From assembly GCF_003334815.1 (NCBI RefSeq), contig NZ_QOWO01000132.1: a stretch of DNA of 377 bases. One strand, written 5' to 3'. The position numbers and the translations under genes are program-made. How positions within the stretch are numbered: position 1 is the stretch's first letter; the number at the start of each line of letters is the position of its first letter. The notes below the pieces were generated by a model that searched no databases, was not told the origin of the DNA, and was given only the letters and a program-made list of their open reading frames with translations. The DNA is from Escherichia coli (GTDB lineage Bacteria; Pseudomonadota; Gammaproteobacteria; Enterobacterales; Enterobacteriaceae). Shown piece by piece: positions 2-302 of this stretch.

Positions 2-77
2 TGGTGGGTCGTGCAGGATTCGAACCTGCGACCAATTGATTAAAAGTCAACTGCTCTACCAACTGAGCTAACGACCC
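2..77 (-). tRNA. lysZ: tRNA-Lys, anticodon UUU, complete 76-nt gene with encoded 3' CCA
   Basis: Reverse complement of 2-77 reads GGGTCGTTAGCTCAGTTGGTAGAGCAGTTGACTTTTAATCAATTGGTCGCAGGTTCGAATCCTGCACGACCCACCA. This folds as a cloverleaf: acceptor stem GGGTCGT/ACGACCC, D-arm GCTC/GAGC, anticodon stem GTTGA/TCAAT with loop CTTTTAA (anticodon TTT is plus 42-44 aaa), T-arm GCAGG/CCTGC with TTCGAAT loop, then discriminator A and CCA. It matches the E. coli tRNA-Lys(UUU) sequence as I recall it. The lysZ label rests only on the recalled 146-nt lysY-lysZ spacing and is tentative. Confidence 0.95.
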
Positions 78-111
78 ATACGGGTGTTACCTGAAAGATT
101 TTTACTCGGGG

Positions 112-128
112 CCAATCTTTAAGATTGG
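112..128 (-). other. Hairpin (7-bp stem, 3-nt loop) overlapping the CCA end of the partial tRNA-Lys copy
   Basis: Plus 112-118 ccaatct pairs with plus 122-128 agattgg; loop is 119-121 tta. In the minus-strand transcript CCAAUCU-UAA-AGAUUGG, the first CCA is the CCA of the tRNA 3' fragment. Confidence 0.45.
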
Positions 129-143
129 TGGGTCGTGCAGGAT
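125..143 (-). repeat. Partial copy of the tRNA-Lys 3' end (18 nt of the gene including CCA, plus 1 flanking nt) embedded in the spacer
   Basis: Plus 125-143 ttggtgggtcgtgcaggat is identical to plus 1-19. Positions 126-143 are the reverse complement of ATCCTGCACGACCCACCA, the last 18 nt of tRNA-Lys. Identity ends at 144 (g versus t in the real gene). It matches the Lys 3' end, not the Val 3' end (tggtgggtgatgacggg). Confidence 0.85.
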
Positions 144-157
144 GACTCGCTTCGCTC

Positions 158-184
158 GCCCTACGGGCCGTTGCTGGCGCAACG
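158..184 (-). other. Two adjacent short GC-rich hairpins in the middle of the spacer
   Basis: Plus 169-174 cgttgc pairs with 179-184 gcaacg (6 bp, loop 175-178 tggc). Plus 158-161 gccc pairs with 165-168 gggc (4 bp, loop 162-164 tac). Both are perfect inverted repeats read directly from the sequence. Confidence 0.4.
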
Positions 185-197
185 TTATCCTTCACGC

Positions 198-220
198 TTA
201 ACATCTGAGTTTGATGTTAA
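198..220 (-). other. Hairpin (8-bp stem, 7-nt loop) starting 3 nt downstream of the lysY-position tRNA 3' CCA
   Basis: Plus 198-205 ttaacatc is the exact reverse complement of plus 213-220 gatgttaa; loop is 206-212 tgagttt. In the minus-strand transcript this is UUAACAUC-AAACUCA-GAUGUUAA. The stem is AU-rich (6 AU, 2 GC), so only moderately stable. No U-tract follows it. Confidence 0.5.
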
Positions 221-223
221 AAC

Positions 224-299
224 TGGTGGGTCGTGCAGGATTCGAACCTGCGACCAATTGATTAAAAGTCAACTGCTCTACCAACTGAGCTAACGACCC
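224..299 (-). tRNA. lysY: tRNA-Lys, anticodon UUU, complete 76-nt gene with encoded 3' CCA
   Basis: Plus 224-299 is identical base for base to plus 2-77, so the same cloverleaf and anticodon apply (anticodon is plus 264-266 aaa). It lies 3 nt downstream, in the transcription direction, of the tRNA-Val gene. The lysY label is from the recalled valZ-lysY 3-nt spacing and is tentative. Confidence 0.95.
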
Positions 300-302
300 G
301 AG

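Follow-up and report, generated by a model that had tools for sequence, protein, structure and literature searches.

Results

tRNA Genes and Direct Repeats in the Window

The window (i.e., the whole stretch of 377 nt of Escherichia coli DNA analyzed here) is part of the lysT operon in reverse complement, and when read from right to left it carries valZ, a 3-nt spacer, lysY, a 146-nt spacer and lysZ. Its features are given below, with tRNA genes scored against the Rfam tRNA model RF00005 (gathering score 29).

2–77, minus strand: tRNA-Lys(UUU) gene lysZ, with encoded CCA (ARAGORN; Rfam tRNA, 79.2 bits; 100% identity to K-12 MG1655)
78–125, minus strand: non-repeat part of the lysY–lysZ spacer, 48 nt, with a small hairpin at 91–100/114–123 (comparison with the empty allele; inverted repeat I1)
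119–143, no strand: partner 1 of direct repeat D2, made up of the tail plus AATCTTAA (repeat finder)
126–223, minus strand: tRNA-linked repeat (TLR, RtT family), short form, 98 nt (Rfam RF00391; fold; homologous units elsewhere)
126–143, minus strand: TLR tail, an 18-nt copy of the tRNA-Lys 3′ end (ATCCTGCACGACCCACCA; identity to 2–19 and 224–241)
149–184, minus strand: conserved TLR core of three hairpins (99% of cells paired in 40 units)
187–196, minus strand: TLR 5′ arm (CGUGAAGGAU), which pairs with the tail strand at 134–143 and closes the fold (fold; compensatory changes)
198–220, minus strand: TLR hairpin 1 (UUAACAUC/GAUGUUAA), confined to the slot b/c subtype (fold; orthologous units)
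217–241, no strand: partner 2 of direct repeat D2, made up of the lysY 3′ end and the first 7 nt of the TLR
224–299, minus strand: tRNA-Lys(UUU) gene lysY (ARAGORN; Rfam tRNA, 79.2 bits; 100% identity to K-12 MG1655)
300–302, minus strand: valZ–lysY spacer, 3 nt, CUC in the transcript (sequence; CUC also in PMC4176162)
303–377, minus strand: tRNA-Val(UAC) gene valZ, its first base falling outside the window (ARAGORN 303–378; Rfam tRNA, 57.8 bits, 5′ truncated)

The two tRNA-Lys copies (2–77 and 224–299) agree at 76 of 76 positions with a start-to-start spacing of 222, and since both genes lie on the minus strand, each 76-nt repeat opens, on the plus strand, with the tRNA 3′ end (CCA). A sequence-only reading of this DNA had described them as two identical 76-bp direct repeats 222 bp apart, and the repeat finder, ARAGORN and Rfam all bear this description out. 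Judged from the sequence, a perfect 76-nt repeat inside 377 nt cannot reasonably be put down to chance. The same reading had placed a partial 3′ copy at 125–143; the copy is real at 126–143 (18 nt, TGGTGGGTCGTGCAGGAT), where it is identical to 2–19 and to 224–241, but base 125 falls outside it, as that base matches base 1 only. The longer direct repeat D2 (119–143 vs. 217–241) spans 25 nt at 92% identity with a spacing of 98, and it bounds a 98-bp segment that is present in some strains and absent from others. Elsewhere in the spacer, a 10-bp inverted repeat (CTGAAAGATT/AATCTTTAAG, window 91–123) has a left arm that varies by strain (AAAGATT vs. AAACATT).

Locus Identity and Operon Context

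The window is 100% identical to valZ–lysY–lysZ in the lysT operon of E. coli K-12 MG1655, as well as to many other strains, and the matched region is annotated in K-12 MG1655 as three tRNA-Lys genes and one tRNA-Val gene. The search covered 5,426 complete E. coli genomes, each of which matches the window. In K-12 the locus lies between cpoB and nadA, and its cluster (locus L001) holds seven genes that, with the spacer lengths in nucleotides, run Lys-135-Val-2-Lys-149-Val-3-Lys-146-Lys-132-Lys. The window and the K-12 operon agree in gene order, in the CUC spacer of 3 nt and in the lysY–lysZ spacer of ~146 nt; there is no difference between them, and the window stops one base before the valZ 5′ end.

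The lysT operon is expressed as a single transcript of ~1100 nt (Agrawal et al., PMC4176162), in which the valZ–lysY spacer is CUC and a lysY–lysZ spacer of ~147 nt is co-transcribed (PMC4176162). RNase P separates the tRNAs at every tRNA 5′ end, working in the 3′ to 5′ direction, exonucleases take off the long 3′ trailers, and with RNase P inactive RNase E is able to cleave the long spacers (PMC4176162). No promoter-like site was found in the window, spacer included, and the two terminator-like matches in the spacer both lie on the antisense strand. Those open reading frames of ≥20 aa that the window contains overlap tRNAs or the structured repeat and give no sign of coding. The locus is an ordinary and already described one.

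Two observations concern DNA beyond the window. An Rfam match to the CpoB/ybgF thermometer (52.8 bits, truncated) lies at L001 3526–3584, upstream of cpoB. Plasmid NZ_CP098226.1 (50 kb; strain Z0117EC0005) carries adjoining tRNA-Val and tRNA-Lys genes at 20408–20599, the latter being 98.7% identical to the chromosomal gene.

A Short-Form tRNA-Linked Repeat in the lysY–lysZ Spacer

TLRs were first seen by Egan and Landy (1978) and are defined by a 3′ end of 18–19 bp that is an exact match to the tRNA or rRNA gene upstream (PMC8144298); K-12 has 22 copies at ten loci, with one to five per locus (Rudd, 1999; PMC8144298). As 126–143 equals 224–241 at 18 of 18 positions, the partial copy answers to this definition and is the defining tail of an already known family. 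The unit starts at the base directly after the lysY CCA on the minus strand, in the same orientation as lysY.

The predicted fold of the unit (−32.7 kcal/mol, z = −3.5; MFE and centroid) has a closing helix in which CGUG-AGGAU pairs with AUCCU-CACG (i.e., the tail), plus the 5′ hairpin and two core hairpins. The conserved core at 149–184 comprises the hairpins CGUUGC-NNNN-GCAACG (169–184) and GCCC-GUA-GGGC (158–168) and a small GC-GAA-GC hairpin (149–155), and hairpin 1 is also found in orthologous units of Citrobacter, Enterobacter and Pluralibacter. The tetraloop at 175–178, within the hairpin at 169–184, is the most variable spot of the unit across E. coli strains and slots (GCCA, GTCA, ATGA, ATCA, GTTA, GCTA and GCCG in the spacers of L001–L015), and the stem is invariant.

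When searched with RF00391, the unit scores 54.4 bits with the 5′ third of the model aligned onto the upstream tRNA lysY, and the spacer alone scores 41.0 bits (E = 3.8e-07) over model positions 46–130 only, against a gathering threshold of 45 bits. The RtT units of tyrT score 133–137 bits. Because the spacer-only score falls below 45 and the model is matched in part, we take the unit to be a relative of the tyrT RtT that has been shortened. In the K-12 lysT operon, each Lys gene has a unit of this kind behind it, and all five of them match RF00391. RefSeq/PGAP labels only the unit after lysQ, as “RtT sRNA,” and the four internal units (L001 1610–1708, 1833–1930, 2137–2234 and 2424–2523), among them that at 126–223 of the window, are without a RefSeq feature.

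The TLR Family Across Genomes

A scan for the core GCAACGRCCCGWAGGGYGA, with one genome per species, returned at least 120 loci, which among the matches listed are mostly from Enterobacterales, with others from Gilliamella, Photobacterium and a few further groups. For 114 cores, the fetched DNA includes an upstream tRNA on the same strand. The final 16 nt of the nearest such tRNA recur without change in the units of 96 of them, and with one mismatch in 6 more. These upstream tRNAs are Tyr, Lys, Arg(ACG), Pro(UGG, CGG) and Ser(UGA), such that a conserved core with a cognate tail occurs downstream of six tRNA types. The proposal that the partial copy in the window is a by-product of recombination between Lys genes therefore does not hold: it is a TLR tail, adjoined by the conserved core, of a kind found behind all six.

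Two groups of cores carry other 3′ sequences. At L024, L090, L091, L098, L100 and L101 the core precedes a copied 5S rRNA 3′ end (AACTGCCAGGCATCAAAT...), i.e., the rrA/rrB/rrF type. At four Pectobacterium loci (L058, L059, L133 and L134) the core is followed by cggacaaggatgtccgtcataaaaaaa without a tRNA tail, partly in tandem, and no tRNA was found upstream of these cores within the fetched DNA; they may represent a tail-less derivative.

Tails also follow variants of their neighbor genes. In Citrobacter youngae (L065), the tail behind a tRNA-Lys with a G4:C69 acceptor variant ends in ACGCCCCACCA, and the tail behind the canonical copy in the same cluster is canonical; in Hafnia paralvei (L070) the tail likewise mirrors a T-stem variant of the adjacent tRNA-Lys. 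The A69C variant thus tracked lies at a position outside the TLR’s own helix. This tracking of the neighbor gene suggests that short-range copying occurs at the DNA level. A TLR tail in Cedecea (L097) also copies a variant of the tRNA-Lys directly upstream.

We aligned 40 short Lys- and Arg-type units, in which 85.9% of cells are paired. Covariation among these units is 0.121, vs. 0.042 in shuffles (0 of 500 reach 0.121) and ≤0.053 for slid partners. Compensatory pairs occur in the closing helix at alignment pairs 14–77 and 18–73 (UA/GC and GC/AU, Lys-type vs. Arg-type units), and at the pair 54–63 of the small hairpin all of GC, AU, CG and UA are seen. Covariation of inverted repeats can also stem from template-switch mutation, and as such is no proof of RNA function. 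A crude complementarity test between the 5′ region of a unit and its own or other tails gave no discrimination (background 8–10 of 12), and alignment-based pair counts were used in its place. Among the TLR subtypes, b and c are ~90% alike, and so are a and d.

Identity of the tRNA-Lys Genes

The identical 76-mer accounts for 64 of the 74 tRNA-Lys genes in the fetched loci, which come from many enterobacterial genera, and the 18-nt tails, which are not tRNAs, carry several strain-specific SNPs in E. coli strains. As the same 76-mer recurs across genera, purifying selection is enough to explain the identity of lysY and lysZ, and gene conversion between Lys genes would not be needed for it. The perfect identity had earlier been taken to point to ongoing conversion, and its recurrence across genera removes the ground for that claim.

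Variation in tRNA Gene Number Among Strains

The same 76-nt tRNA-Lys is present in each of the 5,426 complete E. coli genomes, at 2 to 11 copies per genome (median 6, mean 5.90); in a sample of 59 chromosomes, 49 have six tRNA-Lys genes and 10 have five. Specifically, a junction in which the lysY–lysZ spacer is followed by one Lys gene and then the terminator (i.e., one Lys lost) occurs in 399 of 5,426 genomes, the sampled examples being O157:H7, and the lysZ–lysQ junction is missing in 429 of 5,426 (~8%). The expectation that tRNA-Lys number in this cluster varies by strain is thus upheld.

In the fetched loci these losses are exact to one period: O157:H7 and VL46 lack one Lys, and PCN033 and 22726 have each lost Val plus Lys, the break lying within Lys genes in the former and within Val genes in the latter. 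The lysZ–lysQ junction occupies ~53 more chromosomal places than there are genomes, at most two per genome (~1% have it twice), and this “twice” class could reflect larger duplications. None of the 19 fetched E. coli loci from complete genomes has an extra gene, and three genomes with high place counts that were checked for extra Lys genes have the normal number or one fewer. Many of the sampled minus-one genomes belong to O157:H7 or to strains closely related to it, so the 8% may go back to a small number of independent events; gene number varies in a minority of genomes, probably by way of few events.

Presence and Absence of TLRs

The spacers proved not to be invariant when their architecture was compared across the 5,426 complete genomes: the K-12 layout of the whole locus is found in one place in 984 (18%). 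Each of the five TLR slots is filled or empty independently, with at least eight occupancy patterns in 20 loci and at least eight combinations among the seven-gene loci, and some strains are empty at all five. Filled and empty spacers measure 135/35, 149/51, 146/48 and 132/33 nt, and in slot e (after lysQ) the filled state is a 156-nt insert.

In the lysY–lysZ slot (slot c), the empty allele of S88, M16807 and 22726 is 48 nt long—that is, 146 minus 98—and corresponds to 78–125 with a few SNPs, and its ends fall within the 25-nt direct repeat. The c-type TLR body, counted with a 48-nt query specific to it, is present in 4,056 of 5,426 genomes, and ~25% are without it. A slot-c junction query missed 909 genomes, probably through allele divergence relative to its 28-nt seed, and was excluded from the frequencies. 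The number of genomes that match the window at ≥80% coverage (4,867) was rejected as a frequency of the filled spacer, because an ATTTTAA repeat extends empty alleles to ~80%.

Orthologues of the slot-c TLR occupy the same slot in Enterobacter cloacae, Escherichia sp. ESNIH1 and Enterobacteriaceae RIT691, and a-type and e-type units are also common to several genera. Since orthologous units stand at the same slots across genera, the filled state is ancestral and older than E. coli; deletion between a tRNA end and a tail is the best reading of the empty alleles. The commonest polymorphism at this locus is the presence or absence of TLRs, not gene number.

The slot e unit (L001 1300–1500) is flanked by a 54-nt direct repeat that comprises the tRNA 3′ end and a whole rho-independent terminator. 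Its layout is identical to that of rrnB T1–TLR–T2, and transcription of the unit, if present, would need read-through.

Discussion

A Repeat-Rich tRNA Operon Under Probable Selection

We consider it very probable that the window is explained as a whole by four elements: a lysT-operon segment, a TLR in its spacer, gene identity maintained by selection, and repeat-mediated changes in genes and TLRs. The five tRNA-Lys(UUU) genes of the operon would be identical because purifying selection has frozen their sequence across Enterobacterales. Recombination or replication slippage between whole tRNA genes would remove or add genes, and the same process between a tRNA 3′ end and a TLR tail (18–25 nt, 98 bp apart) would delete a TLR precisely. 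The operon RNA is polycistronic, with RNase P cutting at each tRNA 5′ end and the spacers then being trimmed. The sequence-only reading was right to see the locus as recombinationally unstable because of its repeats, judging from the alleles compared here, while the mechanism is one that we infer.

That reading had proposed the partial copy as debris of unequal crossing over or slippage and the gene identity as the product of ongoing gene conversion. Identical tandem genes are indeed classic substrates of unequal recombination, gene-number variants exist, and the pairing of TLR subtypes (b with c, a with d) is consistent with a Val-Lys-TLR block duplicated in tandem long ago. We nonetheless judge this account very unlikely to hold, as in-register, full-length crossing over yields whole genes rather than an 18-nt fragment with a conserved 80-nt structured body, and as lysY/lysZ identity is equalled by identity across genera. 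The body-plus-tail design, moreover, also stands behind Tyr, Arg, Pro and Ser tRNAs and 5S rRNA in many genera and has already been defined as the TLR (PMC8144298). A miniature or decayed mobile element residing at tRNA 3′ ends, with the tail as a target or att duplication and the polymorphism as a set of insertions, would account for the layout of direct repeat, body and direct repeat, for a repeat that is the adjacent gene’s 3′ end with paralogue variants included (C. youngae, Hafnia), for its extension over the whole terminator in slot e (54 nt), and for a body with an inverted-repeat arm complementary to the tail; genomic islands, too, typically duplicate tRNA 3′ ends (PMC9897764). We find this origin quite improbable, however: no integrase or convincing open reading frame lies in or beside the units, their flanks are tRNAs, cpoB and nadA, the direct repeats differ in length (18–54 nt) where a target duplication would have a fixed one, and the slot-specific body subtypes are orthologous across genera, which argues for vertical descent and loss and not for repeated insertion.

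That the TLR is a selected functional RNA module—its tail and closing helix directing tRNA-type end processing, which would release a stable spacer RNA or tune maturation of the adjacent tRNA-Lys—is a possibility that we hold tentatively, and one compatible with the main explanation. It would fit a fold that is conserved with compensatory pairs (z as above), a family conserved from Enterobacterales to Photobacterium and Gilliamella, and a lysY–lysZ spacer that is co-transcribed (PMC4176162). Among related units, rrA, rrB and rrF undergo processing and, in vitro, associate with Hfq and CsrA, the tail of an rRNA-linked TLR has been proposed as an RNase E determinant (PMC8144298), and RtT-family RNAs have been seen by Northern blot in Actinobacillus (PMC4986893). 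Yet about a quarter of E. coli lack the unit and some lack all five, so that it is dispensable; the sole claimed phenotype has been retracted, and “TLRs have no known function” (PMC8144298). Covariation, furthermore, can arise by template-switch mutation without selection on RNA, and pairing gives no account of a tail that follows A69C outside the closing helix. Beyond the preferred explanation of a selected operon with repeat-mediated changes, TLRs might also be self-maintaining cassettes, whose tails are recopied from the adjacent gene (by template switching or conversion) and which are lost or duplicated via the same repeat. It is a tail following paralogue variants outside its own helix, together with five slots that segregate for presence and absence, that leads to this idea, which we regard as unlikely.

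Implications and Comparison With Known Systems

While the locus alone matters little, being a textbook tRNA operon in the best-studied bacterium, the tRNA-like fragment in its spacer is a caution, as it is a member of a defined repeat family and lacks RefSeq annotation at this place. With its nested direct repeats, the locus ranks among the short core-genome regions of E. coli that vary more in structure, and the sharing of the K-12 layout by only 18% of genomes bears on typing, on tRNA gene counts and on the quality of assemblies. For TLR function, the natural filled and empty alleles would offer ready isogenic contrasts. If occupancy alters the maturation or dosage of tRNA-Lys and tRNA-Val, it would amount to a natural polymorphism that reversibly tunes an operon at the core of translation; such an effect, if true, would be a handle on TLR function, a question standing since 1978.

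Attachment-site fragments of integrative elements present a similar short repeat of a tRNA 3′ end downstream of an intact gene. In contrast, the window has no integrase or island, an 80-nt conserved body lies between its repeats, and the arrangement recurs at six tRNA types with vertical inheritance at fixed slots. The rRNA-linked units rrA, rrB and rrF, which are TLRs between the T1 and T2 terminators of rrnA, rrnB and rrnD (PMC8144298), belong to the same family, with tails that copy the upstream 5S 3′ end, and lysT slot e shares their layout of terminator, TLR and duplicated terminator. They differ from the window unit in lying between terminators instead of between two genes, and in that they bind Hfq and CsrA in vitro, whereas TLRs of tRNA operons have a predicted CsrA binding of <0.01.

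The closest likeness is to the TLR/RtT family itself (RF00391; type member rttR, tyrT operon), with which the window unit shares the core GCAACGGCCCGWAGGGCGAG, the hairpins and the closing helix; it likewise sits directly behind a tRNA gene, and its last 18 nt are that tRNA’s 3′ end. Relative to the tyrT units, it is shorter (98 nt), lacks a T-arm-like module of ~41 nt, has its own 5′ hairpin and scores lower by RF00391 (41 vs. 133–137 bits). In tyrT–tyrV, identical tandem tRNA genes are parted by a TLR, as lysY and lysZ are here, and that pair is a classic substrate of unequal recombination, which changes gene and repeat number. The two systems differ in scale and arrangement: tyrT–tyrV has tRNA-Tyr genes, long-form TLRs and a downstream array of 178-bp repeats (3.14 copies), whereas the lysT TLRs are single and distributed over five slots.
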